Below, in pieces: positions 27,762-60,544 of a stretch of 64,000 nucleotides of DNA (position 1 is the stretch's first letter; every line of letters starts with the position of its first letter). A program made the translations under genes and the position numbers. The stretch covers positions 544,001-608,000 of the forward strand of contig CAVSHF010000005.1 of NCBI GenBank assembly GCA_963727805.1, written 5' to 3'. Under the pieces are notes generated by a model. The model worked only from the letters and a program-made list of their open reading frames with translations. It did not search any database and had not been told where the DNA came from. Origin of the DNA: an uncultured Nitrospiraceae bacterium (lineage in GTDB: Bacteria; Nitrospirota; Thermodesulfovibrionia; Thermodesulfovibrionales; Dissulfurispiraceae).

Positions 27762-28619
27762 CTATTGCGATTTGACGACAAGAACAGGACATGATGCAAA
27801 GCCAATCACTCTTGCGGTAACACTGCCCATGAGGAGCCGCCGCAATCCCGTTCTGCCGTGGGAGGACATGACAATGACATCGGCATTAACATCTTTTGCA
27901 ACTGACAGAATTGCTTTTGCACTATCGCCTTCACGGACAAACGCCTCTGATTTGACGCCCTTCGCTTCCGCTTCGCTTTTCACATCTCCTGCGTATTTCT
28001 TTGCCTTCATGATCATGGCATCGGCAACATCTGTGGCTTCGGCATAAAACTCATCGGGGACGTCAACTACCGACAGCGCTGTCAATGTACCGTTATACGA
28101 TTGAGCGAAATCTATCGCTCTTGCTGCCGCGGCCCGGCTGTATTTGGAGCCGTCCGTTGCGAAGAGGATGGACTTCCATCCCACCTCCGCATTGGACGGA
28201 ACGACCAGAACATCTTTCTGACTGTATCCTATTACCCGCGCCGTAACGCTTCCTATGAGCGTTTTTTCGATCGATCCCCTCCCCGACCGCCCCATGACGA
28301 TCAGGTCGGCATTCTCGGCCTCAGACAGATCAACAATCCTTTCGTAAGGGTCGCCTTGCTCGCAGACAGTCTTTATCAGCGCCCTTTCGCTGTGAGCCAT
28401 TTCCGTAGCTGCCGCAAGTGCCAGTTCACAGGGTTCATTCAATGCCCTCCGCAAATCTCCTATTGCCGTAGTTGATAAGTCCCCGTTATAATCAAGGGCA
28501 ACAGAAACGACAGTTATCCAGCATTTCTCGAAGACTGCAAGCTTGAGGGATTCCCGCAGAGCATGCATGCTCTGCTCTGAACCGTCGACAGCCACCAGGA
28601 TCTTACGATATCTGCCCAC
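27762..28619 (-). CDS. Tandem-domain universal stress protein
   Basis: Two USP domains (ILVAVDGS..DLIVMG..G....GSV; ILFATDGS..DVIVMSSHGRTG...MGSV..V.....CPVLVV). The start codon is GTG. Confidence 0.93.
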   Translation of the reverse strand: MGRYRKILVAVDGSEQSMHALRESLKLAVFEKCWITVVSVALDYNGDLSTTAIGDLRRALNEPCELALAAATEMAHSERALIKTVCEQGDPYERIVDLSEAENADLIVMGRSGRGSIEKTLIGSVTARVIGYSQKDVLVVPSNAEVGWKSILFATDGSKYSRAAAARAIDFAQSYNGTLTALSVVDVPDEFYAEATDVADAMIMKAKKYAGDVKSEAEAKGVKSEAFVREGDSAKAILSVAKDVNADVIVMSSHGRTGLRRLLMGSVTARVIGFASCPVLVVKSQ

Positions 28620-28623
28620 TATC

Positions 28624-29715
28624 TTACTGTGATACTCTTTCGAGGGCTTGTTCCACTGCAGGATGATGCTCCGCCCTGTATCCCTGCCACACTGATTTCA
28701 AAACTATAAAGGCGCCCACCAGAAGTGCGAAGGCCATGATAACAAAGCTCGACCGAGTCAAAACAGTGACCAGAGTTTCATCCAATGATCCCATAATCCC
28801 CAACTGCGAGAGATAAATCGGCACCATCAACCCGCGGCTGAAAATAACGATGACCATGATGAGTCCCATAACTAGCTTGATCATGAAAGGTTTTACATAG
28901 GTGGTTCCAATAGCGCCTAACTGAATGCCGAAGAGCGAACCTGCGAGGAGGATCATGGCAAGTCTGATATCGACGAGGCCATGCATGGCATATTTTAATG
29001 AGCCCCCAACCCCCATGACAAAAGCTACTACCAGCTCCGTTGCCGAAGCCATCAAGCTCGGCGCTCCCATAACATAGATCATGGACGGCACCCCGATAAA
29101 CCCTCCAACAGCGATTGTCGCCGCAAGCATCCCCGTAGCAAATCCGAGAGGGATAGTAAATAGTATCGAGATACGCGCGTTTAGACTCTTAAAATATACC
29201 ATGGTGTATGGAATGTTGACCGACTGTACCCACAGGGCCAGCTTGGAAGTCAGTTCTTTGGCATTGGTGTTTCCGGACCTGTATGTTTTTATAGCGTCGC
29301 TAAGGATAAAACCACCCACGACTGCAAGGATCACTATGAAAACAACACTCACATAGAGATTCGAACCGGCAGTTCCAAACGCTGCCTTGATTTTTTCCTG
29401 GATACTGGCACCGTAAAGGACACCAGCCTCTCCTGAAATTCCCATTACAATGCCGAGTTTCAGATCGACCTGTCCATAGCGGGCACGCTTAATCGAGCCA
29501 ACCAAGGCCTTGGGGAACTTATGGCACATGTTGCTTGCTACCGCAACGAGAGCCGGCACCCCCAGGCTCATCAGGGCGGGGGTCATTACGAATGCTCCTC
29601 CGGATCCGATGAACCCGCTGACGAGTCCACCGATAAAGCCCACGACGAAAAGATATAGTATATTTACTGAGTCAAGAGTGATGAAGTTAGCCGCTTGATT
29701 CGCTATGTCGTGCAT
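28624..29715 (-). CDS. TauE/SafE (TSUP) family transporter
   Basis: GF.GGL.SGFIG.GGAFV.TP and IAVGGFIGVP repeats; polytopic. Confidence 0.9.
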   Translation of the reverse strand: MHDIANQAANFITLDSVNILYLFVVGFIGGLVSGFIGSGGAFVMTPALMSLGVPALVAVASNMCHKFPKALVGSIKRARYGQVDLKLGIVMGISGEAGVLYGASIQEKIKAAFGTAGSNLYVSVVFIVILAVVGGFILSDAIKTYRSGNTNAKELTSKLALWVQSVNIPYTMVYFKSLNARISILFTIPLGFATGMLAATIAVGGFIGVPSMIYVMGAPSLMASATELVVAFVMGVGGSLKYAMHGLVDIRLAMILLAGSLFGIQLGAIGTTYVKPFMIKLVMGLIMVIVIFSRGLMVPIYLSQLGIMGSLDETLVTVLTRSSFVIMAFALLVGAFIVLKSVWQGYRAEHHPAVEQALERVSQ

Positions 29716-29966
29716 TACCGTGCCTCCTTCTTTTTAGACGCCTCGATTCCCATTACGCTCCAGAAACTGCCGGTAAACGAACCGTGCACATATGAAAATA
29801 AAAAAGCCACCACTATCGGCAGAAGAGCGAATAATCCCCCACGCCCGAAATAGTCAATCACTGGTTCCTGATAAAGCAATAAAGCCGCGTACATGGCTAT
29901 CGAAAGTCCCCCCCAAATAGCGGCGCTCGCCCAAGGTTTCTTCTTTTTGTTACTCTGCATGCCCAT
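29715..29966 (-). CDS. Small two-TM membrane protein
   Basis: ALLPI..AF.FSYVHG.F...FW...GI.A; translationally coupled to tauE. Confidence 0.8.
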   Translation of the reverse strand: MGMQSNKKKKPWASAAIWGGLSIAMYAALLLYQEPVIDYFGRGGLFALLPIVVAFLFSYVHGSFTGSFWSVMGIEASKKKEAR

Positions 29967-30020
29967 GTCCTCACCTTCCTCCTTTTATTTGTTTAATTAA
30001 TCACGTGTCGTTTATTTTGA

Positions 30021-30497
30021 TTAAGCGCCAACCACAACCAGCGGGCACTTGATCACATCCCTTACATCAGGCAGGATCTCAGCCTCATCACCGCATCCCG
30101 TATCTAGCCCTCCGTATGAATTCACTACTACATAATCGAAGCCTGAGTTCTGACGGGTAACGTCCACAACCGCTTTTTTCAGACATCCATCTACGACATT
30201 GAAGCGGTAGTCGATTCCCGCCTCCTTGAGTTCGGAATCCAGGCGCTCAACCATGGCCCTGCCTGATTCCATACAAAGAATTTCGAGGCCGGCCTTCATC
30301 CTTTTGCAGAAATTGAGGGCATACGTAAAGCACTTAACGTCTGATGACCGACCTGTGAGGACAAGCAATACCTTCTGTTTCGTTCCGGCCATCTCACGAG
30401 CCATTTCAAATTCTCCTGCCTCTGCAAAAGCCGTTGCAGCCATGATAGTCTCGAATCTCTTGATAAGGCTGCTAAGCTTCATCTTTTTGCTTTCCAT
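30021..30497 (-). CDS. Degenerate USP-like protein with N-terminal FAEAGEF motif
   Basis: GGAGG RBS before ATG 30497; MAATAFAEAGEFEMARE, then KVLLV..YA.NFC.R..A.LEIL..CPLVVV. Confidence 0.8.
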   Translation of the reverse strand: MESKKMKLSSLIKRFETIMAATAFAEAGEFEMAREMAGTKQKVLLVLTGRSSDVKCFTYALNFCKRMKAGLEILCMESGRAMVERLDSELKEAGIDYRFNVVDGCLKKAVVDVTRQNSGFDYVVVNSYGGLDTGCGDEAEILPDVRDVIKCPLVVVGA

Positions 30498-30525
30498 GTG
30501 CGTCACCTCCATCCCTAACAATAGG

Positions 30526-30540
30526 TCAATTTCCGTGCCA
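30526..30540 (-). promoter_or_regulatory. Sigma54 (-24/-12) promoter
   Basis: TGGCAC-GGAAA-TTGA about 30 nt upstream of the first gene of the USP/TauE operon. Confidence 0.75.
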
Positions 30541-30617
30541 AGCATGAAATAACATGCAACTTATTGTATTTAAGTGACATTTATAATATGACCTCAAATA
30601 CTTCAAACAACCCCATG

Positions 30618-30632
30618 GTTGCATTTTGCAAC
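30618..30632. promoter_or_regulatory. Palindromic enhancer-like site
   Basis: GTTGCA-TTT-TGCAAC about 80 nt upstream of the sigma54 site. Confidence 0.7.
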
Positions 30633-30866
30633 TCATGGAAAATTATCAGTTCAAATTGGCATTCTCGGGGACATGCGGGGATGTTGCATGAGGGAGAGCA
30701 TTGGTCCATTGTGAAACGGTAACAGACACTACAGGCCCTGCTGTCCATATCTTTACGAATGGTTTAGTTATTAAAACCGGCTCGCGATTATATGCCTCGG
30801 AGGAGCCAAATGATAAGACCGTTTGTCATTGTTGCTTTTTGCAATAGACGGTGATAGAATGAAACT

Positions 30867-32354
30867 ATGATGGACTATAAACCGAGCATCAGGCGGAAGA
30901 TAACCTTTGGTTACTATGCCGGAGTTGCGGTTATTCTCGCCCTGTTCGTCTTTACATTCACAGAACTGATTATCGTTGAAAAAAAGTTGACGTTCGGAGC
31001 GGTCATCAATGAATTTTTCGATATGACCCTTGAAATGAGACGCTTCGAAAAAAACTTCTTTCTTTATGAAAAGTATTCGGATTATCAGGAAAATATGCAG
31101 TACGTCACAAAAGCTCAGGACATCCTTGCGCAACATATCAATGAATACCGTACACTTGTGATAGCCGACAGACTGGAGGCCTTGCAAAGCGTCTTGAAGG
31201 AATACCGCGAACTCATGGAACAGTATGCCGTGCTCAAGCACGAGGACCCCAAGCGAGTTGCAATAGAAAAGTCCCTAAGGGAAAAAGGCAAAGAAATCAC
31301 TTCGTTTGCGGAGGATATCTCGAAGACCGAGCGGGAAAGGGTAAGTACACTGCTCGATCAATCGAGGATAGTTCTTGCCATAGCAATCGTCGTGCTTTCA
31401 CTTGGCGGTATCATTGTGGGGCAGATCATGTCCCGGATTGTAGTGAGACCCCTCAAGGAACTGGAGGAAAGCATGGTAGCCATCGCCGCCGGGGCTCGGA
31501 ATACTATCGACATACGCTCAAAGGACCGCGAAATCCATTCGCTCACGGCGGCATTCAACAAGATGCTGAGGGAACTAGAACTCCGGCAGCGACATCTGCT
31601 CCAGTCGGAAAAACTCGCCTCTCTTGGTACGCTCATGGCAGGCATCGCTCATGAACTCAACAATCCGCTGTCGAACATATCGACCTCTTCACAAATCCTC
31701 ATCGAAGAGCTTGAAGAGTCCGACGTTGAATTCAGAAAAGAGATGCTGCACCAGATAGAAACCCAGACGGAAAGAGCTCGTAATATCGTCCGGTCACTTC
31801 TGGATTTTTCGCGAGAAAAGGAGTTTAAGCGTGATATTCTCCCCCTCGGAAAGCTTATTCATGAAACACTTAATTTTATCAAGGGGCAGATCCCGGCCAG
31901 AGTCTCTATATCGGTCGAGGTACCAGAGGACATCGTTATCTTCGCTGACAAGCAGCGTATTCAGCAGGCTTTTTTGAACCTCCTCAAAAACGCTGTTGAA
32001 GCAGTAACGGAAGAGGGGAGCGTTTTCATACGAGCAGAAAGGCAGCTTCCCGAAGGCATGGAGAATGCTGAATCCTACATCCAGATGCTGGATAACAGCC
32101 GATGCAAGTCTTTCGGAGACGACGTTTACATCACTATCAGGGACACGGGAAGCGGTATACCGCTCGATATCCTGCCCCGAATAATGGACCCATTCTTTAC
32201 GACAAAGGATGTTGGGAAAGGATCGGGTCTCGGCCTCTCAATTGTTCATGAAATCATTGACGAGCACGATGGCTGCATCAGGGTCCATAGCGAGGAAGGC
32301 AAAGGCACGACCTTCATACTACGTCTGCCTGCAAAGGACGTCCGCTTTGAATAA
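30867..32354 (+). CDS. Membrane sensor histidine kinase (HAMP-HisKA-HATPase)
   Basis: Two TMs, [37 protein letters not shown]. Confidence 0.95.
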
Positions 32355-33705
32355 CTCCATTAGAATACTCATTGTTGATGACGAAAGAATAGCGCTCAAG
32401 AACCTCGAACATGTCATGAAAAAAGAAGAATACGACGTGGTCAGCACACAGAGCGGACAGAATGCCCTCAAGCTTCTCGAAGAGCAGCAATTTGACGTAA
32501 TCCTCACGGATCTCAAGATGGAGAAGGTTGATGGAATGCAGGTGCTTAAAAAGAGCAAAGAGCTATACCCCGATTCCGAAGTAATCATAATAACCGGGTT
32601 TGCAACGCTCGATTCTGCGGTAAAAGGAATGAAGCATGGGGCTTTTTATTATATCGCAAAGCCTTTCAAGCTCGATGAGGTGCGCCAAGTCGTTAAAGAG
32701 GCCGTCGAAAAAATACATCTGAAAAATGAGAACCGGCAGTTACGGGAGCAGCTCGAATCCTACAAGGGGAAGGTCAAAATCATAACCCAAAATACTGCTA
32801 TGATGAGGCTTCTCGATACTGCGAGGCAGATCGCTCCCACCGATTGCAATGTCCTACTGAGCGGCGAAAGCGGCACCGGCAAAGAACTCTTCGCACGGCT
32901 AATCCACATAGAAAGCAAGCGTTCAGAAGGGACCTTCTTCGCCATTAACTGCGGTGCCTTTACAGAAGAGTTGCTGGCAAACGAGCTTTTCGGCCATGAA
33001 AAGGGTGCTTTCACCAACGCATCAGCCATGAAGAACGGATTGATCGAGATGGCATCGGGAGGTACTCTGTTCCTCGACGAGGTAACTGAAATGACGCCCT
33101 CTATGCAGGTGAAACTGCTTCGGGTCATCCAGGAAAGAGAGGTCCTTCGGGTTGGCGCTACAAAGCCTATCAAGGTGGACGTCAGGTTTATCGCCGCTAC
33201 AAACAGGGACATCCATGACGTCATCAAATCAGGCAGTTTCAGACAAGACCTCTATTTTAGACTGAATGTCGTATCGCTGCATATCCCGCCTCTGTCGGAG
33301 CGCAAGGACGATATCCCCCTGCTCTGCTACTACTTCCTGACAAAATACTCGACTCTCATGAAAAAGGATGTTTCTGACATATCGGCGGATGTAATGGAAC
33401 TCCTTTCTAACTATGATTTTCCAGGAAATGTCCGGGAGCTCGAAAATATAATAGAGCGGGGCGTCGCCCTCGCCGGTAGTAACACCATAGAAATATCAGG
33501 TCTCCCTGATGACCTGAAAGAACTTAACATCAAGATATTCAGGAAGAAGGGAGGTAAGATCCCATCACTCGAAGATCAGGAAAGGGATTATATCACATGG
33601 GTGCTGACCGAGTTTGGGGGCAACAGGACTCTTGCCGCCCAGACGCTCGGCATCGACCGCGTATCTCTCTGGCGGAAGCTGAAGAAATACGGACTTGAGG
33701 AATAA
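32347..33705 (+). CDS. Sigma54-dependent response regulator (NtrC family); probable TTG start at 32347
   Basis: REC, GESGTGKE, GHEKGAFT, TLFLDEV, FRQDL.FRLNV, PGNVREL and Fis-type HTH. Confidence 0.95.
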   Translation: MNNSIRILIVDDERIALKNLEHVMKKEEYDVVSTQSGQNALKLLEEQQFDVILTDLKMEKVDGMQVLKKSKELYPDSEVIIITGFATLDSAVKGMKHGAFYYIAKPFKLDEVRQVVKEAVEKIHLKNENRQLREQLESYKGKVKIITQNTAMMRLLDTARQIAPTDCNVLLSGESGTGKELFARLIHIESKRSEGTFFAINCGAFTEELLANELFGHEKGAFTNASAMKNGLIEMASGGTLFLDEVTEMTPSMQVKLLRVIQEREVLRVGATKPIKVDVRFIAATNRDIHDVIKSGSFRQDLYFRLNVVSLHIPPLSERKDDIPLLCYYFLTKYSTLMKKDVSDISADVMELLSNYDFPGNVRELENIIERGVALAGSNTIEISGLPDDLKELNIKIFRKKGGKIPSLEDQERDYITWVLTEFGGNRTLAAQTLGIDRVSLWRKLKKYGLEE

Positions 33706-35151: not shown

Positions 35152-35165
35152 TTATCAAGTGATGA

Positions 35166-49067: not shown

Positions 49068-51071
49068 TCAGAGGAGAACCTTGTCTGCCATCTCCTGAAC
49101 GCTTTCTGCAAAAAAGAAACTCACGTCTTTTTTTATCTTCGCAGGAAGGTTGTCAATATCCACCCTATTCTTAACAGGCAGAATTACTTCCTTGATCCCT
49201 GCTCTCCGTGCAGCAAGAATCTTTTCCCTTATGCCCCCGACAGGCAATATTCTGCCGCTGAGCGTAAGCTCGCCTGACACCGCTACATCTCGTCTGGCAG
49301 GCCTTCCCATAAGAAGGGAGATAAGCGCCATAGCGATCGTGACCCCGGCCGACGGGCCATCCTTTGGTATGGCTCCTGCGGGCACATGGATATGGATATC
49401 ATGATTTTCGAAGAAATCTTCAGGCAACTTGAATGTCCCCGCATTACTTCTTACATAACTCAGAGCGGCTTGAGCAGACTCGCGCATTACTGTACCAAGA
49501 GAGCCGGTGAGGATAAGCTCTTTGCTGCCCCACATCTTCGCTGCCTCCACAAATATAATATCACCACCTGTTTCAGTCCAAACCAAGCCAGTGGTGACTC
49601 CTATGCGGTTCTTGGCAGTCGCTGCCTCGAAATCATATTTTCTCGGGCCGAGGAATGATTCGACCACTTCCGGCGTGATCCGAAGAACTTCTGCAGGACA
49701 CTTTTTCAGGACTGTTTCTTTGGCTATCTTGCGGCACACGGTTGCGATCTGCCGTTCAAGACCCCTCAGTCCCGCTTCCTTTGTGTATCCCTGTATGATT
49801 TTCGCAACTGCTTCTGTATTAAATTTAGGTGGGCATTGAGACAGGCCTTGCTCGCGGACCTGTCTTGGAATGAGATACCGTTGGGCGATCATTTCCTTGT
49901 CCTCCTCGGTATATCCGGAGAACTCGATGACCTCGAGCCTGTCAAGAAGGGGTTCATAGATATTATCAGCTACATTAGCCGTCACAATAAACATCACACT
50001 TGAAAGATCAAAGGGGACATCGAGGTAGTGATCTATAAATGCGCAGTGTTGTTCGGGGTCAAGCACCTCCAGAAGAGCTGAAGCAGTGTCAACCCTGGAC
50101 TCGTTATGCATCTTGTCTATCTCATCGAGCATAAGGACAGGATTCGCAGACTGAGCACGTCGTATTTCTTCGATGATTCTTCCCGGCATGGCGCCAGCAT
50201 AAGTCCTGCGGTGACCCCTGATTTCCGCTTCATCGCGCACACCACCAAGAGATATCCTGGAGAACTGTCTTCCAAGGGCATCGGCGATACCGTGGCCCAA
50301 TGATGTCTTGCCCGTGCCCGGAGGGCCAGAAAAGCACAGGACAGACCCTTTCACAGACGTTTTTGAAGCGCTCGCTACAGCCTTCTTTACTGAAGCCCTG
50401 ACTTCGTCGAGATTAAAAGGTTTAGTGATGTAGTCGAATGCACCCTTCTTAGTGGCTTCCAGGGCTGACTCAATGGAAGCATAAGCTGTTATAATAATCA
50501 CTCTCGTATCCGGATAGCTGATCCTGATCTTTTCGAGCAATTCCATACCACCCATTTTGGCCATTCTCAGGTCCGTTAGAACGATATCAAAGCTGGACAC
50601 ATCAGCTTTCCTTATGGCCTCAGTGCCACTTGCAGCGGTTTCGACGGCATAATTCTCCCGCTTCAGGATGTGCTCAAGATTTTTGACCGCGACCTCTTCG
50701 TCGTCTACAATCAGGATGTTGGGCTGCTTGCCCTGGGACTTCAGCAGTGTTTTTACAGCGAGATGTTCGAGAATCCGTTCTTTGACATTACCGAGCCCGA
50801 AATGCCTTTCACTGAGAATCATTTCCGCCCGGCGCAGGTCGAGGTTGTCTTCGGTCTTTTTGTTCCAAGGTAGACTGACAAGGTATTCAATATAGGTAAG
50901 GCCTATTGAATATTCCGCCATCAGGGGGCTAATCCTGGAGATAGTCAGAAGTTCATTCTGAGCTATCTCCAGGACTTCGGTAGGCATACTCGCGGAGAAG
51001 ATCTTCTGTTTCAGGTCTTCTATTGCATCTATCTGGAGTTTATCGTCACCTTTCTTAAAAAAGCTCATCAA
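49068..51071 (-). CDS. lon: Lon-family ATP-dependent protease lacking the N-domain, with an inserted receiver domain
   Basis: LPW..., HFGL..VKERILE.LAV, [REC aa ~118-233], GPPGTGKT, RGHRRTY.GA.PG, LDEIDK, PKDGPSAG (Ser) and GG..EK (Lys). Confidence 0.93.
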   Translation of the reverse strand: MMSFFKKGDDKLQIDAIEDLKQKIFSASMPTEVLEIAQNELLTISRISPLMAEYSIGLTYIEYLVSLPWNKKTEDNLDLRRAEMILSERHFGLGNVKERILEHLAVKTLLKSQGKQPNILIVDDEEVAVKNLEHILKRENYAVETAASGTEAIRKADVSSFDIVLTDLRMAKMGGMELLEKIRISYPDTRVIIITAYASIESALEATKKGAFDYITKPFNLDEVRASVKKAVASASKTSVKGSVLCFSGPPGTGKTSLGHGIADALGRQFSRISLGGVRDEAEIRGHRRTYAGAMPGRIIEEIRRAQSANPVLMLDEIDKMHNESRVDTASALLEVLDPEQHCAFIDHYLDVPFDLSSVMFIVTANVADNIYEPLLDRLEVIEFSGYTEEDKEMIAQRYLIPRQVREQGLSQCPPKFNTEAVAKIIQGYTKEAGLRGLERQIATVCRKIAKETVLKKCPAEVLRITPEVVESFLGPRKYDFEAATAKNRIGVTTGLVWTETGGDIIFVEAAKMWGSKELILTGSLGTVMRESAQAALSYVRSNAGTFKLPEDFFENHDIHIHVPAGAIPKDGPSAGVTIAMALISLLMGRPARRDVAVSGELTLSGRILPVGGIREKILAARRAGIKEVILPVKNRVDIDNLPAKIKKDVSFFFAESVQEMADKVLL

Positions 51072-51131: not shown

Positions 51132-51311
51132 TTATTTCCTCAAGCCTGGGGCCTTAAGTTCTTTCCTCGGCCTTAACGAGGGAACGACACGCTCAAACTG
51201 CCGCGGCCTGTCTTCCTCGCGCATATATTCTCTTGCAGTCTCAAATTCACCTGCTTCGGCAAAAGTGATGGCGACGAATAAATTCTCGATCTTTTTGGTC
51301 AGCCCTTTCAT
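51132..51311 (-). CDS. Small FAEAGEF-motif protein (59 aa)
   Basis: AAAAGGAGG RBS; MKGLTKKIENLFVAITFAEAGEFETAREYMREEDRPRQ... Confidence 0.8.
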   Translation of the reverse strand: MKGLTKKIENLFVAITFAEAGEFETAREYMREEDRPRQFERVVPSLRPRKELKAPGLRK

Positions 51312-51392: not shown

Positions 51393-51408
51393 TGCATTTC
51401 TCATGCCA
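51393..51408 (-). promoter_or_regulatory. Sigma54 (-24/-12) promoter
   Basis: TGGCAT-GAGAA-ATGCA upstream of the small protein-lon pair. Confidence 0.7.
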
Positions 51409-51582: not shown

Positions 51583-51597
51583 ATTGCATTTTGCAAT
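51583..51597. promoter_or_regulatory. Palindromic enhancer-like site
   Basis: ATTGCA-TTT-TGCAAT, the same 13-bp core as at 30619-30631; degenerate copy at 51473-51487. Confidence 0.65.
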
Positions 51598-51877
51598 GCA
51601 TATGGTAAAACAGGCAATTATCTTGAGAATTCACAAAGATTCGCCTTGAAAATCCCTACATCTCATGGTATGCTCAGAAAAGCGAATGCATTGCATTGCA
51701 TTGCAATGATTCGGGCGTTCCATCGTCAATCATGGCATCGAAAAAGTCCGGCGTGATACTGATCTTAAAGGGACAGAGCGAACAATCAGGACACTGCACC
51801 ATCTAATGTCGTATTCTCACAAGTTGTATCATGGGCAGTCCTGTCGCTTCATCATGACTGAGGAAAGGGGTCTATTT

Positions 51878-54031
51878 ATGCGTCCGCGCATCGATGAAGA
51901 GTTGGATACCGTTAAACGGCTTGACAAAGTAGTGGATCTGATCGAAATCGCTGGAGGGTTGCCGGCTTCTACAGTTTTGGTAGTCGGCGGGCACCGCGTC
52001 GAGGACCTTCGACTTGTCGAGTCTGCGAGGGACCACGGGATAGTCGACAGAATAATCCTCGTGGGCGTGAAAAATCGAATCACAAAATCCATAGACGAAG
52101 TTGGGATTGAAATTGATCAAAAAGATATCGTACCGGCTGACAATGACGAGCAGATCGCCAGAGCGACTGTCGAGTTCATCAAGACCGGCGGAGTCGACAT
52201 AGTGCTGAAAGGGGCCATCTCTACCCCCATTATCAACCGCAATATGCTCCCGTTGGCCATCCGTTCCACTGTGAGCCTGGCTACTGTCTTTGACGCCGCA
52301 TCCATAGCTGGTGGTCGACCCATCCTTCTCACCGACGCAGGTGTCACAACTGTATGCAACTTTGGTAGAATACAGGACCTGGTCCGCAATGCTGTTGATG
52401 TGGCGCGGACAGTAATGGGTATCGATCGACCACGGGTGGCAATGCTTTCTGCCAACGAAAAACAGATACCCTCTCTCCCATCAACCTGGATTGGGTTAGA
52501 GACTGCAAAAAGATCCTGGCCGGATGCCATTGTCTGCGGGCCGCTCTCATTTGATCTGGCAACCGATCCCGAATCGGTCTCTATCAAGGGTCTGCCGGAC
52601 GTGCCCAATGCTGCTGAGGTGGCTGGACGTGCCGATATTCTCGTCTGCCCCGGTATCGACACCGCAAATACGCTGTATAAGACAATATCAGCCATGAATA
52701 AATACGGTGAGGCTTCTCTGGCCAGCATCACAGTTGGCTTCCCCATGCCGTATATCATCCTTTCACGCTCGGACAGCCTGGAGACACGGCTGGTTTCGGT
52801 TGCCTTGTCTGCAGTCTACGTCCAGCGCAGCTTGCAGAAACATATCATCTCACAGCCTGACACAGTAGCGACCCCTGTTTCGAAAGCCTATCGTGTGCTG
52901 GCGGTCAACCCAGGATCAACGTCGATGAAAGTTGCGCTCTACGAGGGCGATCGTTGTCTGCAGCAGGAGGAAGTTGCCTGTGAGATTGTCCTTGGCGGTA
53001 CTGCTGCCCAGCGCAATATCCAAGCAGAGCAATTGACTCAGCAGGCAATCGACTTGCTTGATAACTGGAAAGAAACAAAAATAGATGCAGTCGCCGCCCG
53101 CGGAGGGTTTCTGTCGCGTCCGGCAGAAAAACTGGCTGGGGGCTCATATCTTGTCGCGGAAAAGTGCGATGGGAAAATCATCGTAGACGACGCCATTGTT
53201 TCAGCGGTGCGGGACTACCCTGAGAGGGAACATGCCAGTAATTATGGGGCCCCTGTTGCTGCCGCGCTGGCTGAGAAGCTAGGCGTTCCGGCACTAGTCG
53301 TAGACCCGGTGGTGGTAGATGAATTCAGCCTGGAAGCTGAACTGTCGGGATACGAACCGATAGTTCGCCGCAGCACCTCGCATGCCCTAAGTATTCGCGC
53401 AGCAGCTCGAAGGACGGCTCAGGATATCGGCCGTTCAATTGAGGATATCAATCTTGTAGTCGCGCACTTGGGCGGCGGAATTACAGTAGCGGCTGTTCGC
53501 GGAGGCAAGATCGTCGATAACAACATAGCCCTGCTTGGCGGCGGGCCATTCACGCCTCAAAGGGCCGGGGAATTACCCACCGGAGAACTAATCGATTTAT
53601 GCTATTCGGGGCGGTTCACACGGGATGAACTGATCGCGGAACTCACCAAAAAAGGGGGGCTCCAGTCTTATCTTGGTACCCACCGAATGGAAGAGATCGA
53701 GCAGCAGATCGCTACCGGCGACAAGCGTGCGAGTCTCGCTGTCGATGCGATGTGCTACCAGATAGCCAAAGAGATCGGCAAAGCATTCGTTGCAGTAGGA
53801 TGCGACGTGGAGGCGATCGTACTGACCGGCGGGCTGACTCACAGTAAGTTGGTGCGCGACAACCTTCGTCGACGGGTAATCCGGTTGGCGCCGGTCATCG
53901 TTTACGCGGGTTCACTAGAGATGGCAGCACTTGCCGCTGGTGCGATGGACATGCTATCAGGCCGTCGCACTCCAACTCGCTACAAGGCTTCCGTAACCAT
54001 TGACATATCCCGAAATATCGGAGGGACTTAA
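51878..54031 (+). CDS. Phosphate butyryltransferase-butyrate kinase fusion (start could be 51854)
   Basis: N-half: D.VLKG...T, L.TDAG, GPLS.DLA, VAG.ADILV.P, P.I..SR.DS. C-half: VNPGSTS.K, RGG, HASN.G, VAHLGGGI.V, GPF.P.RAG, IVLTGG. Confidence 0.9.
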   Translation: MRPRIDEELDTVKRLDKVVDLIEIAGGLPASTVLVVGGHRVEDLRLVESARDHGIVDRIILVGVKNRITKSIDEVGIEIDQKDIVPADNDEQIARATVEFIKTGGVDIVLKGAISTPIINRNMLPLAIRSTVSLATVFDAASIAGGRPILLTDAGVTTVCNFGRIQDLVRNAVDVARTVMGIDRPRVAMLSANEKQIPSLPSTWIGLETAKRSWPDAIVCGPLSFDLATDPESVSIKGLPDVPNAAEVAGRADILVCPGIDTANTLYKTISAMNKYGEASLASITVGFPMPYIILSRSDSLETRLVSVALSAVYVQRSLQKHIISQPDTVATPVSKAYRVLAVNPGSTSMKVALYEGDRCLQQEEVACEIVLGGTAAQRNIQAEQLTQQAIDLLDNWKETKIDAVAARGGFLSRPAEKLAGGSYLVAEKCDGKIIVDDAIVSAVRDYPEREHASNYGAPVAAALAEKLGVPALVVDPVVVDEFSLEAELSGYEPIVRRSTSHALSIRAAARRTAQDIGRSIEDINLVVAHLGGGITVAAVRGGKIVDNNIALLGGGPFTPQRAGELPTGELIDLCYSGRFTRDELIAELTKKGGLQSYLGTHRMEEIEQQIATGDKRASLAVDAMCYQIAKEIGKAFVAVGCDVEAIVLTGGLTHSKLVRDNLRRRVIRLAPVIVYAGSLEMAALAAGAMDMLSGRRTPTRYKASVTIDISRNIGGT

Positions 54032-54033
54032 AA

Positions 54034-54519
54034 ATGAATCAGACAGAAAAAAACCATTGGGTCTTCAGAGCCCACGTACTTGATCGTTCCGGTGCGCTGA
54101 CCAGCATCGCCTCCGCTTTCAGCAATGAGGGCGTAAGCATCGACACTGTCGTGGGGCACGGCTCCGAGGTCTTAGCGGGTACAGATGGCAGCGTTGTGCT
54201 GACCTTCTGTTGTAGCGAAGAGGAAAAAGACAGGATGGTCCGCAAGGTAAGACGTCTCAGCAAGGTGACTCGTCTGCAGGAGCATCCTTATGAGTCGCAG
54301 AGCCTGCGAAAGTCGGCTATCATTCTGGCAAACCGAGAGCTAAAGCCGATTGACGTGGTGGGAGAAATAGCCTTTCTGACAAGCGAGCTAGTGAAAGCCG
54401 ATGCTAACGGCTGGACTTATCTGCTGGCGGGCTCACCCAGTGACCTTGACCCTGTGCTGGAACGCCTCGAAACCGGAGGGGTTGTTAAGGACATCATCTA
54501 CTCGGTGCTGAGTCTCTAA
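54034..54519 (+). CDS. ACT-domain protein (acetolactate synthase small-subunit-like N-terminus)
   Basis: V.DRSGAL..IAS.FS..G.SID..; starts 2 nt after the ptb-buk stop. Confidence 0.7.
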   Translation: MNQTEKNHWVFRAHVLDRSGALTSIASAFSNEGVSIDTVVGHGSEVLAGTDGSVVLTFCCSEEEKDRMVRKVRRLSKVTRLQEHPYESQSLRKSAIILANRELKPIDVVGEIAFLTSELVKADANGWTYLLAGSPSDLDPVLERLETGGVVKDIIYSVLSL

Positions 54520-54564
54520 AATTCACGGCCGCAACAACTTGCTTGCTTTGAGCACTTGCGAACG

Positions 54565-55209
54565 TCATTTGACTTTTGTTACGGCCGGCATCTTAATTAC
54601 CGTTTCACAGCCATTATTTAAGATAACTGCGCCGAGTTCCATGGCTATACCCTCTATCTCCCCAGCATTGCTTGTTTCTGCAATATCGGACGACGGCACA
54701 GTCCCTCCCTCGGAAGCCAGTGTTATGCAAAAGCATCCATCCGAAAAGTGCGTACCGATAGATATAACACCGTTGCTGTTAAGGGATAACATCTTTGCTT
54801 CAATCAGGCAGAACAAAAGATAATGGAAATGTATCGGATTGAGCATAGTCGAGGGCAGTCCGCCCCTTAATTGTTTATTAAAGGAGATACGGTTTCGGTA
54901 AGCCAGTCGGGTCATCAGTGCAACCAGTTCGTCAATAAGATCATTAATATGCACAGCCACATGGTCAGCTTCCATGCGGTGGGCAAACCGAGTGAGGTAA
55001 TCGGTGATCGCCGTAGCCCGCCCTACTTGTTCGTCAACGCATCCTATAAAGCCCAAAAAATGCTTTTCGTCCAGTGCTTTGGACTTCTTTATTTCTATGA
55101 CATCTTTCATCAACCCATTGGTTTCCTTGATGATGGCGAGGTAATTCTTTACCTCATGAGTATAGCAGGATATGATCCTGCCGACAAAGGACATCCGAAG
55201 GTCTTTCAT
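54565..55209 (-). CDS. Degenerate histidine kinase-like protein (H-box kept, ATP-binding boxes lost)
   Basis: THEVKN.LAII.E..GLMKD matches the neighbouring kinase H-box; no N-box, DxGxG or GxGLG. Confidence 0.8.
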   Translation of the reverse strand: MKDLRMSFVGRIISCYTHEVKNYLAIIKETNGLMKDVIEIKKSKALDEKHFLGFIGCVDEQVGRATAITDYLTRFAHRMEADHVAVHINDLIDELVALMTRLAYRNRISFNKQLRGGLPSTMLNPIHFHYLLFCLIEAKMLSLNSNGVISIGTHFSDGCFCITLASEGGTVPSSDIAETSNAGEIEGIAMELGAVILNNGCETVIKMPAVTKVK

Positions 55210-55580
55210 TTCAGCCTTTTCTCATACGCGCTGTCGATTTTGGCTACAAGCGTTTCTATTTCCGAAGGTTTAATGGCGTAATCCGCTGCACCATCCGCCG
55301 CCCATTCAGCAGCGCACTGCTCTGAGCCGTGCCCCGTCAGCAGGATCACCTCAGAGGAGGGGCTGATCTTTTTGATCTTTTTGAGCACCTCGACACCATT
55401 CATGCCGGGCATCTTGAGGTCGAGAAGGACAACGTCGGGCGGTTCATTCCTCACCTTGTCAAGAGCGTCCTCGGCGCAAAACACCGCATTCGCTTCATAG
55501 CCTCTTATCTGAAGCCGTTCTGCGAGAGTCGATGCAAATTCGACCTCATCGTCTACAAGGAGCACTTTTACTTTTGACAT
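55206..55580 (-). CDS. Stand-alone receiver protein
   Basis: VLLVDDE, LLDLKMPG, LTG.G, KP. Confidence 0.93.
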   Translation of the reverse strand: MSKVKVLLVDDEVEFASTLAERLQIRGYEANAVFCAEDALDKVRNEPPDVVLLDLKMPGMNGVEVLKKIKKISPSSEVILLTGHGSEQCAAEWAADGAADYAIKPSEIETLVAKIDSAYEKRLK

Positions 55581-55589
55581 CGTTTCCTC

Positions 55590-57356
55590 TCACTGCGCCT
55601 CTGCGCGTACCGGTAATTCTACATGGAACGTCGTACCCACACTTACTTCACTCTCGACACGTATAGAGCCTCCCAGCCTGTCAACTATTCCATACGTGAT
55701 CGAGAGGCCAAGTCCGGTTCCCTTACCCTTTTCCTTAGTCGTATAGAAAGGCTCGAATATATGCTTGATCTTTTCTTTAGCGATACCTTGGCCATTGTCC
55801 TTGATTGAGACCCTTATCCTTTCAGGATTGTGCAATTCCGTAGAAATGATTATCAAGCCCCCATCCTCTACGGCATCGATGGCGTTGTTGATGATATTAA
55901 GAAAAACCTGCTGGAGCTGTCCCTTGTCAGATATGATCCTGGGCAAGTCTTCCTTTAAGCGTGTTTCGAGGCGAATGTTCCTGTAAAGAATCTCCTTGTC
56001 CAGAAATTCAATGACTTCTCTTATCGTATCGTTCAGATCGATCTCCTCATGCCTTACGTCCATCCGACGCGCAAACCCCAAAAGTCGCTGTGTAATAGCT
56101 TTGCACCGGGTTACACTGTCTGATATGGCCTGAATGAGACCAATAAATTTCTCCTTGTCGATATGAGAACCTTTGGACATGAGAAGGAGATCCTTCATCA
56201 AGCCAGCCTTCTCGTTGATTATTGCAAGTGGATTATTAATCTCATGGGCGACACCTGCACCTAAACGGCCGATGGAGGCAAGCCTCCCCGAATGCTGGGT
56301 CTGGGCTATGGCCTCCTCCCGTTCCAACTCCGCCTCTCTAATCCAATTCACTAACGCAATTGAAATCTTGATATTCGCAATGATACCCAAAAAGATGAGA
56401 AAAACCGCAAGATATACTGAAGCCATGTCTCTTGTCAACAAATCAAGAAGTTTTGATTGTGCTGTAGAAGCAACAGTCATGCCCAGTATCCATGGAGATT
56501 TTTTGATAGACGTGTAGCCAAAGATCAGCGGCGTGCCACCGTTCTGCCGGACGTCAGATAGTATCACATCTTCCGTTGGACGAGGGACCTCGATGGCAAT
56601 TTTTTCAAGCACATTGCCGTGATATCTCGACCGGGTCTGCAAAATGCCCTGATAGTTTATGATAAAGGCGTCGTCCCTACTCTTTAGGTTTACTATCGAT
56701 ACGTAACGATTGAGGGTCACCATATCAATAGTCGCCCTGAGTATACAGAATGTACCCTTTTCCGGCAACTCCTTCTTCACCGCAATTGCAAAATGGGGTA
56801 TTTTCCTGTAGCCCATAAAAACATCACTCACGTAGACACCTCTTACAGCCACCTCGTTGAACCAGTCCTGATTAGAGTAATTTTTGCCTTGCAGGGAATA
56901 TGGACCTGAGTAGCTTAGCTGCATGCCTTTGGAATCGATCAAGCCGAGATCGACTAGTTCCCCAAACTCTCTCTTGAATTTTATGAAAATATCATTAAGA
57001 TATTTTTCATCGGACAATTGCACAAAAGAATTAGCAGCAGCAAGAAACCTCAGGGCCGATATGCGCTCGTCTATAAAAAACTCAACAGACTGCCGGGTGC
57101 TTTCTATATTCCCTCTCATCTGGTTGTTGAAGTCCTCTTTAAAAGCCCCTTGAAGCGAGAGATAACTAAGGATCGTTATCATTATGAGAGGGACGCCAGC
57201 CAAAGTACCTATAAGGAGAAAAATCCTAATTTTAAGAGTTGTATAGCGGTCTTTCGAAAGAGAGGGAACAGACGTAGACGACGGATCTGTATGCAGCAGC
57301 TTCCTGTAGCGGGTTATCATCTTCTGAACCAGCCCATTAGGTCGTTCATCTGTCAT
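55590..57356 (-). CDS. Sensor histidine kinase with Cache-type periplasmic domain
   Basis: GVAHEINNPL, NIINNA.DA, DNG.GI, FEPFYTTK, GTGLGL. Confidence 0.95.
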   Translation of the reverse strand: MTDERPNGLVQKMITRYRKLLHTDPSSTSVPSLSKDRYTTLKIRIFLLIGTLAGVPLIMITILSYLSLQGAFKEDFNNQMRGNIESTRQSVEFFIDERISALRFLAAANSFVQLSDEKYLNDIFIKFKREFGELVDLGLIDSKGMQLSYSGPYSLQGKNYSNQDWFNEVAVRGVYVSDVFMGYRKIPHFAIAVKKELPEKGTFCILRATIDMVTLNRYVSIVNLKSRDDAFIINYQGILQTRSRYHGNVLEKIAIEVPRPTEDVILSDVRQNGGTPLIFGYTSIKKSPWILGMTVASTAQSKLLDLLTRDMASVYLAVFLIFLGIIANIKISIALVNWIREAELEREEAIAQTQHSGRLASIGRLGAGVAHEINNPLAIINEKAGLMKDLLLMSKGSHIDKEKFIGLIQAISDSVTRCKAITQRLLGFARRMDVRHEEIDLNDTIREVIEFLDKEILYRNIRLETRLKEDLPRIISDKGQLQQVFLNIINNAIDAVEDGGLIIISTELHNPERIRVSIKDNGQGIAKEKIKHIFEPFYTTKEKGKGTGLGLSITYGIVDRLGGSIRVESEVSVGTTFHVELPVRAEAQ

Positions 57357-58066
57357 CGTAGTAAGATTACCCTCAACTTACACAAATCCCTTTGCATGCG
57401 CCTCAATTAAAATCACCTTGTCGCATTATAATACTTTAAAGTTAATCAATCGCACAACAGTAATACACAAATAATAACGATGTTAATTTCTTCTTAGTGC
57501 CATTATCGTTGTTGGAATATTTTATTAAAATGCTGGGTTAGGCTATCATACACTAGACAGTAGGATTATTATACGGATGCGACCAGAAAACCGTCGAACT
57601 TTCGTGTGGAGAGCAGCAGCGCGTAACTGTAGCGAGGAAGTTGCTGTTGTAACTCCACGTTGTTCTTGCCAACTAACCGACGTGCAATGTCGATACAGCA
57701 ACGGGTGAACCCCTTTTCAGAGAACTCATCGACATCAACTAAAAGCAAGGTGTTACATTTGTCATCTTAACGCACAACGAATCGCTCTCCAAGAGGTGCT
57801 ATCGCGTCATCAAGATGATTGATGTGATATTATTGAATCGTCAGGGGGTAATGGGCTATGATATACCTTAACTTTTCCGTTAAGGAGGGATTGCCATAAA
57901 ACTTTTGTTGTCAGATGTTTCCACCAAAGAGATAGAACCTTCAAAACTGAATAAAACAGCGAGCATCATCCTTGATAAAATCAAGTGGGTACATGTACCT
58001 ATTTTGTATGTTCCTGTTTAACACAATTATAGTGTTTTAAATACTAAAGGAGGTCTTATTGTAGTT

Positions 58067-59107
58067 ATGGCAAAAAATACTTTCCCATCTCTGCCCAAAC
58101 AACGGATTCCGGACATATTCAACCGTGTCCGAAAGCTTCGAGTCTCTCGTACCGTCATAGTTTGTTTGATCGCGCTGGCATTAACAGTGCTGCTATGCCT
58201 GTCTATTGCACTAGCCTCACCTGAAGCAACGCAGGCAGTTCAGGAGGGCGTTAAGTCATCCATGCCCTGGTGGGCATGGCCTCTGATACTTTTTGTAGTT
58301 ACCTTTTTTCTCGGCATAGTGGCCGTACTCGGAGGAGTAGGAGGCGGGGTTCTTTACGTGCCGATCATCGGTGGTTTCTTCCCGTTCCATCTTGATTTTG
58401 TAAGGGGCGCGGGACTCCTTGTGGCACTCGCCGGTGCACTCGCTGCAGGTCCCGGTCTTCTGAAGAAGGGCATGGCAGACCTGAGGCTTTCCCTTCCTAT
58501 CGGCATCATCGCTTCGGCCTGCGCCATCGTCGGCGCGATGATCGGACTTGCGCTTCCGACGAATGTCGTCCAGACTGCTTTAGGAGCGACAATACTTGGC
58601 ATAGTTTTTATAATGCTCCTAGCCAAGAAATCGGAATATCCCGAGGTAAAGCAGGCTGACGCACTCTCCACGGCACTCAGGATTAACGGCATATATCATG
58701 AACCGTCAAGCGGGCACGATGTCAACTGGAAGGTCCACCGGACCCCTCAGGCGCTTGCAACATTTATCCTGATCGGCATAATGGCAGGCATGTTCGGAAT
58801 GGGCGCAGGATGGGCGAATGTGCCGGTACTCAATATGATGATGGGCGCGCCTCTGAAGGTCTCCGTTGCGACGAGCAAGTTTCTGCTCTCCATCACCGAC
58901 ACCTCAGCAGCATGGATTTATGTGAACAACGGGGCCGTGCTTCCGATGATCGTCGTCCCGTCTATAATCGGGATAATGCTCGGCTCGCTTGTGGGCGTGA
59001 GGATTCTCTCAAGAACAAAGCCAGCCGCCATCAGGTATATCGTTATTACCATGCTGCTTTTCGCAGGCCTTAGGGCGTTGCTTAAAGGTCTTGGCATATG
59101 GACTTAG
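58067..59107 (+). CDS. TauE/SafE (TSUP) family transporter
   Basis: G.GGGVL.VP and AGMFG.GAGWANVP; polytopic. Confidence 0.9.
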   Translation: MAKNTFPSLPKQRIPDIFNRVRKLRVSRTVIVCLIALALTVLLCLSIALASPEATQAVQEGVKSSMPWWAWPLILFVVTFFLGIVAVLGGVGGGVLYVPIIGGFFPFHLDFVRGAGLLVALAGALAAGPGLLKKGMADLRLSLPIGIIASACAIVGAMIGLALPTNVVQTALGATILGIVFIMLLAKKSEYPEVKQADALSTALRINGIYHEPSSGHDVNWKVHRTPQALATFILIGIMAGMFGMGAGWANVPVLNMMMGAPLKVSVATSKFLLSITDTSAAWIYVNNGAVLPMIVVPSIIGIMLGSLVGVRILSRTKPAAIRYIVITMLLFAGLRALLKGLGIWT

Positions 59108-59121
59108 ATAAGGAGGATTAA

Positions 59122-59538
59122 ATGTCAAACAAATTGAAAGCTACCGAAGAACAACTCGCTTACGCAGCACTCCTCGATAAGGGGATGAAAATCGGGCTTC
59201 TCATGCTGATAATCACCTTTATTATCTACTTGACCGGCATCCTGTCGCCGTATGTGCCGGTCAACGACCTTCCCAAATACTGGATCATGCCGGTGCATTC
59301 CTATCTTGAACAGACAGGGATACATCCCGGCTGGGCATGGCTCTACCTGCTTGATAAAGGGGATTTTCTTAACTTTACCGGGATTGCCTTCCTTGCTGCT
59401 GTGACCCTTATCTGCTTTGTCAGGATTATCCCAATACTGTTCAGGAAAAAGGATACGATCTACGGTATTATCGCCATTCTAGAACTTCTGGTGCTTTCAC
59501 TTGCGGCATCCGGAGTATTGAAAACAGGAGGTCATTGA
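59122..59538 (+). CDS. DUF1634-like membrane protein
   Basis: EQ..YA.LL, GW.WL..L..GD.LN..GI.FL; follows tauE. Confidence 0.75.
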   Translation: MSNKLKATEEQLAYAALLDKGMKIGLLMLIITFIIYLTGILSPYVPVNDLPKYWIMPVHSYLEQTGIHPGWAWLYLLDKGDFLNFTGIAFLAAVTLICFVRIIPILFRKKDTIYGIIAILELLVLSLAASGVLKTGGH

Positions 59539-59675
59539 ACCAGAACAGTATTGTATAGAGCCCCCGGCATTCACTCTATTTGAAATGAAACCGACGGACT
59601 GTTCATGGTTGAATGGAAATAAAGTTTAACATTTAGCCAAAAATATCTTAATATATAGTATAAGGTAAGGAGGTT

Positions 59676-60137
59676 TTGGTGAAAAGAAATAAAGACATAA
59701 AAGTACTGCTGGTCGACGACGAGGAAGCATTTGTCAATACCCTCGCACAACGTTTGAAAATGAGGGAACTTAACGTAGAAACCGTCTATGACGGAGAGCA
59801 GGCACTCGCACAGGTTAAATCAAAGGAGCCCGATGTCATGGTGCTCGACCTGAAAATGCCCGGGCTTCACGGGATGGATGTGCTCAGAGAAATTCGAAAA
59901 TCGTACCCCAATATGCAGGTCATAATCCTTACCGGACACGGGACTGAGAAAGACGAGGAGGAGGCAAGACGGCTGGGGGGATTCGACTTCCTGAGAAAAC
60001 CCGCCGATATCGATAAACTCATCGGGAAAATTAAGGAAGCATATGCTGAAAAGCTCGAAAGAGCGATGACAGCAATCGCTTTTGCCGAAGAAGGTGAGTT
60101 CGACACTGCGAGAAAAATCATAAGAGAAGAAGAATAA
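59676..60137 (+). CDS. Receiver protein with C-terminal FAEEGEF tail
   Basis: REC motifs followed by KLERAMTAIAFAEEGEFDTARKII. Confidence 0.92.
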   Translation: MVKRNKDIKVLLVDDEEAFVNTLAQRLKMRELNVETVYDGEQALAQVKSKEPDVMVLDLKMPGLHGMDVLREIRKSYPNMQVIILTGHGTEKDEEEARRLGGFDFLRKPADIDKLIGKIKEAYAEKLERAMTAIAFAEEGEFDTARKIIREEE

Positions 60138-60163
60138 TTTTCCTTTGAAAACTGCAAGGCACC

Positions 60164-60544
60164 ATGACTAACGAGTTGCTAGCGAACATCCTTCTGGTCG
60201 ATGACGAGGAAAGGTTTGTCGAGATTCTGGCTCAGCGTCTTCAGGCTCGTGGCCTAATCATAGATGTAGCCACGACAGGCGAAAAAGCAATCGCCCTGAC
60301 AAAAGCAAAAGATTTCGACGCGGTCCTTCTGGACCTCTCGATGCCTGGGATGGACGGGATTGAGGTATTGAGAGCTATGAAAAAGACGAATCCGCTGCTC
60401 CAGGTTATCATCCTTACAGGCCAGGGCTCAATTCAGGCAACCGTCGAGGTCATGAAAGAAGGCGCCATGGACTTCATGGAAAAGCCAGTAGATATCAATA
60501 AGCTCCTTGAAAAGATAACAGAGGCTAAACTTAGAAGATCGTAG
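60164..60544 (+). CDS. Stand-alone receiver protein
   Basis: ILLVDDE, LLDL.MPG.DG, LTG.G, KP. Confidence 0.93.
   Translation: MTNELLANILLVDDEERFVEILAQRLQARGLIIDVATTGEKAIALTKAKDFDAVLLDLSMPGMDGIEVLRAMKKTNPLLQVIILTGQGSIQATVEVMKEGAMDFMEKPVDINKLLEKITEAKLRRS

Follow-up and report, generated by a model that had tools for sequence, protein, structure and literature searches.

A stretch of 64,000 nucleotides from an uncultured Nitrospiraceae bacterium (assembly GCA_963727805.1, contig CAVSHF010000005.1, positions 544,001 to 608,000; hereafter the window) encodes, at two loci that we call A and B, a sensor kinase, a sigma-54 activator, a TauE transporter operon and a Lon paralog with a receiver (REC) domain, REC-Lon, and, at a third locus, C, a further set of signalling genes. 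We tentatively propose, as a possibility rather than a probability, that REC-Lon, which lacks the N-terminal head of Lon, is switched by the kinase and reads a private, portable tag, a basic C-terminal tail carried here by a 59-residue mini-protein, so that the TauE complex would be destroyed at a time set by the kinase, and that a short hairpin with the motif FAE (the FAE hairpin) is a new docking module that would gather universal stress proteins (USPs), receivers and phosphotransfer proteins. The core of the system is a stress module of anaerobes that is known from Desulfovibrio vulgaris; the hairpin and especially the tail are undescribed in the literature that we found, and the tail is the new result. 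The elements that carry the argument are as follows (coordinates are those of the window).

49068..51068 (-): REC-Lon, without the first ~260 residues (the N-terminal domain) and with a receiver before Walker A
50373..50723 (-): receiver insert of REC-Lon; its best match in the genome is the receiver of the activator of locus A
51132..51311 (-): mini-protein of locus B, 59 residues, with FAE hairpin and basic C-terminal tail; size and position of D. vulgaris DVU3302
51219..51290 (-): FAE hairpin of the mini-protein
51135..51200 (-): basic linker and tail of the mini-protein (core 51150-51173), which co-varies with REC-Lon; candidate degron or tether

The alignment of REC-Lon to the canonical Lon of the same genome begins at canonical residue 260, and the receiver is inserted directly before Walker A. 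The protein scores 693.7 bits against TIGR00763 (cut-off 608.05) and has the Walker A and B motifs and the Ser-Lys dyad that are hallmarks of LonA, the N-terminal substrate-binding domain being the part that is missing. Catalytic and phospho-acceptor residues (D166, K254, S573, and K616) are intact and invariant across 11 aligned copies. Known C-terminal degrons of Lon, such as that of LarA, bind the N-terminal domain (PMC11882793; papers are cited here for the parts of their text that were available), and, because this domain is missing, REC-Lon needs another route of substrate selection. We found no study of REC-Lon substrates or of its recognition route in the literature searched, the scope of which stopped short of subscription papers. 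The sequence-only reading had remarked that the receiver of Lon resembles that of the NtrC-like activator, and this holds: the activator of locus A is the best match at 53.5%, a slight lead over the next two in the genome (50.0% and 48.7%). Further, the activator type of locus A is present in all 12 full REC-Lon loci. Among 35 aligned REC-Lon rows, 30 match the pore-loop pattern, and 26 of these have Tyr-Ala; the canonical paralog reads Tyr-Val there. We also noted a segment at the start of REC-Lon, M-x-[FLI]-F-[KRG]-[KR] (51051-51068, -), which is conserved in nearly all of the 35 aligned copies and is possibly an anchor to the membrane or to a partner. Protease-less relatives of REC-Lon, ~380 residues long and consisting of a helical bundle, a receiver and an AAA domain with a degenerate Walker A, occur in 8 of 111 genomes (L131:6385-7512, L132:6235-7407, L133:221-1384, L134:4221-5390); they are divergent from a kinase in three of the four loci fetched, and two genomes that have one contain neither full REC-Lon nor a match to the motif.

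Mini-proteins encoded at REC-Lon loci end in a Lys/Arg-rich linker followed by an R-P-R-x-x-L-R-A core, whereas the ends of those from genomes without REC-Lon are mostly acidic or neutral and are unconserved. By a rule that asks for a net charge of +2 or more plus a loose pattern, the tail is present in 51 of 56 REC-Lon genomes and in none of 16 without, a count that omits seven genomes of unassigned status and open reading frames (ORFs) at contig edges and for which REC-Lon status was partly entered by hand. In a sample of the class (111 genomes, our own included), all 31 genomes with full-length REC-Lon have a match that reaches model position 54 or beyond, several of the 31 having been in the training alignment, and at least 4 of the 41 other motif-bearing genomes do so among the matches listed (150 of 244). 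These four are G146, where REC-Lon is present and cut by the contig end, G100, where the match is a USP-like protein, G143 and G088. Of the positives that were fetched, 17 of 20 pass the rule, 14 of these sequences being new, and in the remaining three the tail is visible on inspection; because they were picked as the best matches, they confirm the sequence of the tail and not its frequency. The fetched loci of 14 Lon-less genomes contributed a single, marginal pass. In a second phylum, where tails are more varied, position 50 is reached in 12 of 21 REC-Lon genomes, compared with none of 11 others. The contrast is also seen inside one genus (g9), in which G104 and G115 have both tail and protease and G015 and G155 have neither. 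When the 21,576 ORF ends of the genome were scored with the tail profile, the top three were its three mini-proteins, which the profile had included. Orphan tailed mini-genes of this genome lie at L026:751-942 and L027:449-646, each behind a sigma-54-like site, and the one at L027 has a top-ranked activator site.

The tail is also found on a protein unrelated to the hairpin, the small membrane protein encoded next to TauE. We compared 60 distinct small membrane proteins. A long basic extension at the C terminus is present in 16 of them and is clearly of the tail type in 14; 13 of the 16 are in REC-Lon loci, two come from genomes with REC-Lon elsewhere and one is of unassigned status, and no extended protein from a Lon-less genome was seen among the 60. 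The tailed examples include three REC-Lon loci in which no hairpin is detectable. No tail was found on USP-like hairpin proteins (0 of 126 rows) or on full-length receiver-hairpin proteins, including the USP-like protein of locus A and the receiver of locus C; in the window, the mini-protein is the only carrier, and the small membrane protein ends short. We conclude from these sequence comparisons that the tail is portable, sitting either on the hairpin mini-protein or on the unrelated small membrane partner of TauE, and that it is likely the recognition tag by which headless REC-Lon picks its substrates, which makes it a candidate degron.

The sequence-only reading had noted the same peptide motif at all three loci and had cast it as an adaptor or degron for Lon. 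The motif itself is well founded: F[AS]E.GE has exactly three six-frame matches in the window, at 30428 (-), 51263 (-) and 60081 (+), and a profile of these copies finds three further ORFs in the genome at 34-56 bits, so far above the background (at most 7.8 bits among 47,364 ORFs) that chance is not the explanation. The three additional copies are two stand-alone mini-proteins and the USP-like protein of a paralogous kinase-activator-TauE-USP locus; this locus (L028:768-7497) encodes a kinase, a sigma-54 activator, a USP-like protein with an internal hairpin, TauE, a TIGR02186-like protein and two USPs, and no Lon. The hairpin is ~25 residues long and is predicted to be a helix-turn-helix in both structure models. 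It shares with TPR (Pfam TPR_4) this fold and the register of small, aromatic and glycine positions, and it differs in that its copies occur singly or are connected by linkers of variable length (spacing mostly 34-47 residues) rather than packed in arrays. TPR_4 matches occur in 8 of 41 mini-proteins, and membership of that family is not indicated, all scores being under the Pfam cut-off and no arrays of 34-residue units being found. The hairpin has no entry of its own in Pfam, NCBIfam or the PDB; a PDB sequence search with the motif returned two antitoxin chains only (E ~0.2), which were rejected, and FAEAGE-type strings in the literature led to unrelated papers only.

The best named relatives of the hairpin are from Nitrospirota, mostly Thermodesulfovibrionales, and matches in the ESM Atlas are to Nitrospirota clusters only. 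At an E-value of 0.001 or better, the motif profile matches 1,472 clusters, which include a few ordinary TPR proteins; the best 150 of these are mostly small or USP-like proteins with one to four copies, together with two ordinary TPR proteins. The hairpin is also fused to receivers, to a phosphoenolpyruvate (PEP)-utilising enzyme-like protein and, once, to a small membrane protein (L125). The PEP-utilising enzyme-like proteins are ~890 residues long and have the hairpin inserted near residue 200 (L129:1832-4522, L090:13782-16454); a search for long motif-fused proteins, in itself a weak one, gave 10 candidates, none significant.

The proposed tie of the motif to Lon did not hold, and it is the basic tail that co-varies with the protease instead. 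Of 40 relatives, 26 carry the motif; full-length REC-Lon accompanies it in 10 of these 26, and in another two the protease is split or cut. In the class sample, 72 genomes have the motif and 31 have full-length REC-Lon; co-occurrence is complete as seen from the protease, all 31 being within the 72, and fails as seen from the motif, 41 of the 72 lacking full-length REC-Lon. In the second phylum (131 genomes), the motif is present in 28, REC-Lon in 21 and both in 17, which leaves 11 of the 28 motif genomes Lon-less. We note that the kinase-activator-mini-USP-TauE layout is kept in Lon-less genomes and that, of 28 full 20-kb loci around the motif, a transporter is encoded in 27, a kinase in 24, an activator in 23 and REC-Lon in 12. 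On these grounds of co-occurrence, REC-Lon was set aside as the partner of the hairpin; TauE as its sole partner was set aside as well, motif genes also heading SLC13-like transporter operons. Complex predictions of the mini-protein with Lon residues 1-450, activator residues 1-371 and two kinase DHp helices scored 0.00 in two runs for which controls were not folded, and they weigh neither for nor against an interaction. Overall, the FAE hairpin is, as judged from sequence, an uncatalogued TPR-like module that is not tied to REC-Lon, widespread and without a family model in Pfam or NCBIfam, and is likely a general docking module for a kinase/transporter complex.

The remaining features of loci A and B are as follows.

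27762..28619 (-): tandem universal stress protein of locus A, in the position of DVU3298
28624..29715 (-): TauE/SafE-family anion transporter of locus A, matching DVU3299 in position and size
29715..29966 (-): small membrane protein preceding TauE, with a short C terminus here; position of DVU3300
30021..30497 (-): USP-fold protein with an N-terminal FAE hairpin at 30384-30455 and without the basic tail, placed like DVU3301 and similar to it in size
30526..30540 (-): sigma-54 site of locus A, the -12 element of which reads GA, as in relatives
30618..30632 (strandless): perfect activator palindrome of locus A; a second site lies at 30831-30845
30867..32354 (+): sensor histidine kinase of locus A (HAMP-HisKA-HATPase), with a DVU3304-like role
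32209..33705 (+): open frame of the sigma-54 response regulator (REC-AAA-Fis HTH), the receiver of which starts near 32356, with a DVU3305-like role
51394..51408 (-): sigma-54 -24/-12 site of locus B
51583..51597 (strandless): activator palindrome of locus B, of DVU3305 type

The genes and domains listed for loci A, B and C by the sequence-only reading are all present. The mini-protein most likely starts at the ATG at 51311 (59 residues) and the USP-like protein at the ATG at 30497 (158 residues), each with GGAGG in front. The latter, the product of the first gene of locus A, has no Pfam match; its structure model (predicted local distance difference test score of 85) gives top fold matches that are all USPs, the best being TeaD (E 5.6e-5). 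Loci A and B have in common an activator palindrome and a sigma-54 site. The palindrome alone is not above chance in the window (4 matches at two or fewer mismatches compared with 2.68 expected). With a matrix built from 159 sites of other genomes, the top four sites in the 3.9-Mb genome are those of locus A (30618), locus B (51583), an orphan mini-gene and the second site of locus A (30831), each with a sigma-54 site downstream, which bears out the common promoter architecture claimed for A and B.

Further, A and B form a single contiguous locus in four genomes of the same genus (G002, G003, G005, and G007) and in two of other families (G033 and G035), in which the activator and kinase are divergent from the mini-gene, REC-Lon, the USP-like gene, the small membrane gene, TauE and USP, the Lon gene being inverted in G033. 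In most of these six loci the mini-gene and the USP-like gene each have a sigma-54 site of their own; the palindrome is present in most, and a perfect one is usual before the USP-like gene. In the window, the cassette of mini-gene and Lon sits 19 kb from the rest of the module behind its own promoter. Contigs of related sequence in run X11 cross both junctions of the cassette, and the split is therefore probably not an assembly error. We conclude that A and B are one locus split by rearrangement. The proposal of a single regulon of A, B and C thus stands for A and B, with one kinase/activator pair, and falls for C, which has none of their promoter features.

The system as a whole had been put forward as undescribed, and here the literature decides otherwise. 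Rajeev et al. described in 2011 DVU3303 (Lon with a receiver), DVU3304 and DVU3305 in D. vulgaris Hildenborough, mapped DVU3305 to its own operon and to DVU3302-3298 with the site GTTGCGATATGCAAC, pointed out orthologs in Thermodesulfovibrio and proposed that phosphorylation activates the protease (PMC3333781); Kazakov et al. give the same regulon (PMC4641369). Trotter et al. report cofitness above 0.9 among DVU3303-3305 and found that, under chlorate, DVU3303, 3304 and 3305 are detrimental (loss helps) and DVU3299 is needed (PMC10102598). DVU3302, 3301, 3300 and 3299 are 180, 543, 294 and 1,071 nt long (59, 180, 97, and 356 residues; PMC10102598), and their order and sizes match those of the mini-, USP-like, small membrane and TauE genes here. 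Both systems have a receiver-Lon, a kinase, a sigma-54 activator, an activator palindrome of the type GTTGCA-N3-TGCAAC before the Lon and transporter operons, and a target operon of small proteins that ends in an anion transporter and a USP; they differ in that the mini-gene and Lon are separated here from the rest. Because gene order, sizes and activator site match DVU3298-3305, the core of the system counts as already known. In the available parts of those papers, DVU3300-3302 are called hypothetical, and no hairpin, tail, substrate or adaptor is mentioned.

The explanation that we rank first, to which we give somewhat less than an even chance as a whole, combines the split module, a kinase-switched REC-Lon, recognition of the tail and a consumable mini-adaptor. 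The sensor kinase would likely phosphorylate both the sigma-54 activator and the receiver of REC-Lon, and the activator would likely induce operons A and B. Phosphorylated REC-Lon would then engage the basic tail of the mini-protein, which, docked by its hairpin, may bring the activated protease to the TauE complex or may itself be the regulator that is cleared; as a consumable adaptor, it would limit the protease as well as deliver it. In loci whose small membrane partner bears the tail, this partner would itself be the target of the protease. Gene content, intact catalytic and phospho-acceptor residues, promoter sites, the contiguity of A and B in relatives and the co-variation of tail with protease are observed; we infer the phosphotransfer, the binding, the degradation and the partner of the hairpin. 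The chlorate phenotypes are consistent with a system that, on balance, acts against the transporter. If true, the mechanism would constitute an orthogonal protease-degron pair, that is, a kinase-gated protease with its own tag, would show how a Lon lacking its head selects substrates, and would account for why, in D. vulgaris, the signalling genes and the transporter have opposite phenotypes under chlorate; the tail offers a short, testable candidate for the substrate question of receiver-Lon in sulfur-cycling anaerobes.

Several observations count against this explanation. The evidence for the tail is co-occurrence throughout, and the tail rule was set after the data were seen. Five of the 56 REC-Lon genomes fail the rule, 9 of the 21 REC-Lon genomes of the second phylum have no tail-reaching match, G088 keeps a near-complete tail without REC-Lon, and G128 passes the rule without REC-Lon. 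In a quick tree of the activator, REC-Lon status changes 7 times, compared with 9.2 in shuffles; the genomes are related and the well-supported branches force only one change, so that independent changes are suggested rather than demonstrated. The transporters beside the hairpin are of unrelated folds (TauE in 25 of the 28 full loci, SLC13/ArsB/NhaD-like in 7), which speaks against a single docking site on the transporter. The likeness to the D. vulgaris system rests on architecture, order, size and DNA site. For the chlorate phenotypes, the authors themselves invoke expression of DVU3299 (PMC10102598), and insertions in DVU3303 could be polar.

The reading that comes a close second, and that we regard as unlikely, is that the mini-protein is a feedback inhibitor whose hairpin sits on the kinase or the activator and which REC-Lon clears through the tail. 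The mini-gene usually heads the induced operon, and its persistence without a tail in genomes that lack REC-Lon implies that the hairpin has a Lon-independent job; a kinase or an activator is near in most of the 28 full loci (24 and 23), tandem copies of the hairpin suggest an oligomeric target, and mutants of DVU3303-3305 share matching phenotypes. A precedent is FixL-FixJ-FixT of Caulobacter, a two-component system that likewise induces a small Lon-degraded protein, FixT, the inhibitor of FixL (PMC7078487); FixT, however, is a receiver domain degraded by the housekeeping Lon, whereas here a hairpin and tail would be handled by a dedicated Lon paralog with its own receiver. Feedback inhibition leaves the tail on the small membrane partner of the transporter unexplained and is a poorer fit to the opposite effects that loss of the signalling genes and of DVU3299 has under chlorate. 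Our preference for the consumable adaptor has two grounds: the tail is found again on the partner of the transporter, and an adaptor fits those phenotypes.

It is improbable, in our estimate, that the tail is not a delivery tag but, as LarA is for canonical Lon, an allosteric effector of REC-Lon that activates it or inhibits it competitively. Lon can be activated by small substrates that bear a C-terminal degron (PMC10665427; PMC11882793), and the three tailed mini-genes of this genome, each with a sigma-54-like promoter, suggest that dosage matters. SmiA (PMC9204741) and LarA (PMC11882793) are small proteins that steer Lon or stimulate it, and terminal degrons play a part in this. Both, however, act on full-length Lon, LarA through the N-terminal domain missing in REC-Lon, no family or structure match links the mini-protein to either, and a carrier of the tail that is anchored in the membrane resembles a target more than it does a diffusible effector. 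We think it quite improbable that tail and REC-Lon are merely co-inherited parts of a cassette and that the tail does another job, such as binding membranes or nucleic acid: kin do share cassettes, well-supported branches force one status change only, and basic low-complexity tails are common, but tail and protease have been lost together within genus g9 and in several families, and REC-Lon is present wherever the tail turns up again on an unrelated protein. Very improbable, finally, is the original version, in which the FAE motif is itself the adaptor or degron of REC-Lon and A, B and C are one regulon. The motif is indeed present in 31 of 31 REC-Lon genomes of the class sample and in 17 of 21 of the second phylum, C-type genes adjoin the module in 6 of 15 loci, and locus C is reminiscent of the CckA-ChpT-CpdR relay, in which a single-domain receiver controls ClpXP (PMC6393856). 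Against it stand the motif genomes without full-length REC-Lon (41/72 and 11/28), the three REC-Lon loci without the motif, the occurrence of the motif at internal positions and in tandem repeats, and the want of activator and sigma-54 sites at locus C; elsewhere, a sigma-54 site lies upstream of 0 of 19 C-type TauE genes and 0 of 16 receiver-FAE genes.

Locus C comprises the following features.

54565..55209 (-): pseudokinase, histidine kept, DxGxG missing
55206..55580 (-): single-domain receiver
55590..57356 (-): sensor kinase (dCache-HisKA-HATPase) of a separate phosphorelay
58067..59107 (+): TauE-family transporter, without a sigma-54 promoter
59122..59538 (+): small membrane protein, no family match
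59676..60137 (+): receiver with a C-terminal FAE hairpin (60054-60125) that continues from helix 5, without the basic tail
60164..60544 (+): second single-domain receiver

The core of locus C in relatives consists of the kinase, the receiver, the pseudokinase and the receiver-hairpin protein, frequently joined by a second receiver, TauE and the gene for the small membrane protein. The last of these had been labelled DUF1634-like, and its product matches nothing in Pfam or NCBIfam. The pseudokinase retains its histidine and lacks DxGxG in 10 of 10 relatives and is, for this reason, likely a phosphotransferase. Neither an activator site nor a sigma-54 promoter was found at locus C, which has no promoter feature in common with A and B; a further set of C-type genes elsewhere has a sigma-54 site upstream in 1 of 9. 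Because it has no activator site, no sigma-54 promoter and no tail, we place locus C outside the regulon. Of 15 C-type loci, a set enriched for REC-Lon loci, 6 are beside the activator type of locus A and 5 beside REC-Lon, and C-type TauE adjoins in 16 of 54. CckA-ChpT-CpdR has the same parts as locus C, namely a kinase, a receiver, a kinase-like phosphotransferase and a single-domain output receiver; the likeness is one of architecture only, and the output receiver of locus C differs in carrying an FAE hairpin, with no tie to a protease evident for it. We read locus C as a separate phosphorelay and sometime neighbour of the module in other genomes, its output receiver using the same hairpin.

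Ten metatranscriptome runs contained 5-9% of the sequence words, and in three of them the mini-gene and Lon are covered by short pieces that come from related organisms; neither expression nor co-expression can be read from these. Two transposase-like genes are present, at 41527-42747 (-), between A and B, and at 61386-62156 (-); an ORF listed at 41549-42793 is an off-frame shadow of the former. Divergent from promoter B, at 51806-54519 (+), are a fused phosphate butyryltransferase-butyrate kinase gene and then a gene for an ACT-domain protein. Following locus A, as in others of the genus, is a YeeE/YedE sulfur transporter gene (25860-26858, -) with an in-frame TGA after a Gly-Gly pair, an earlier motif of the gene reading Gly-Gly-Cys; ~41 conserved codons continue past the TGA in 7 of 7 related loci, the genome has tRNA-Sec, and the product is probably a selenoprotein.

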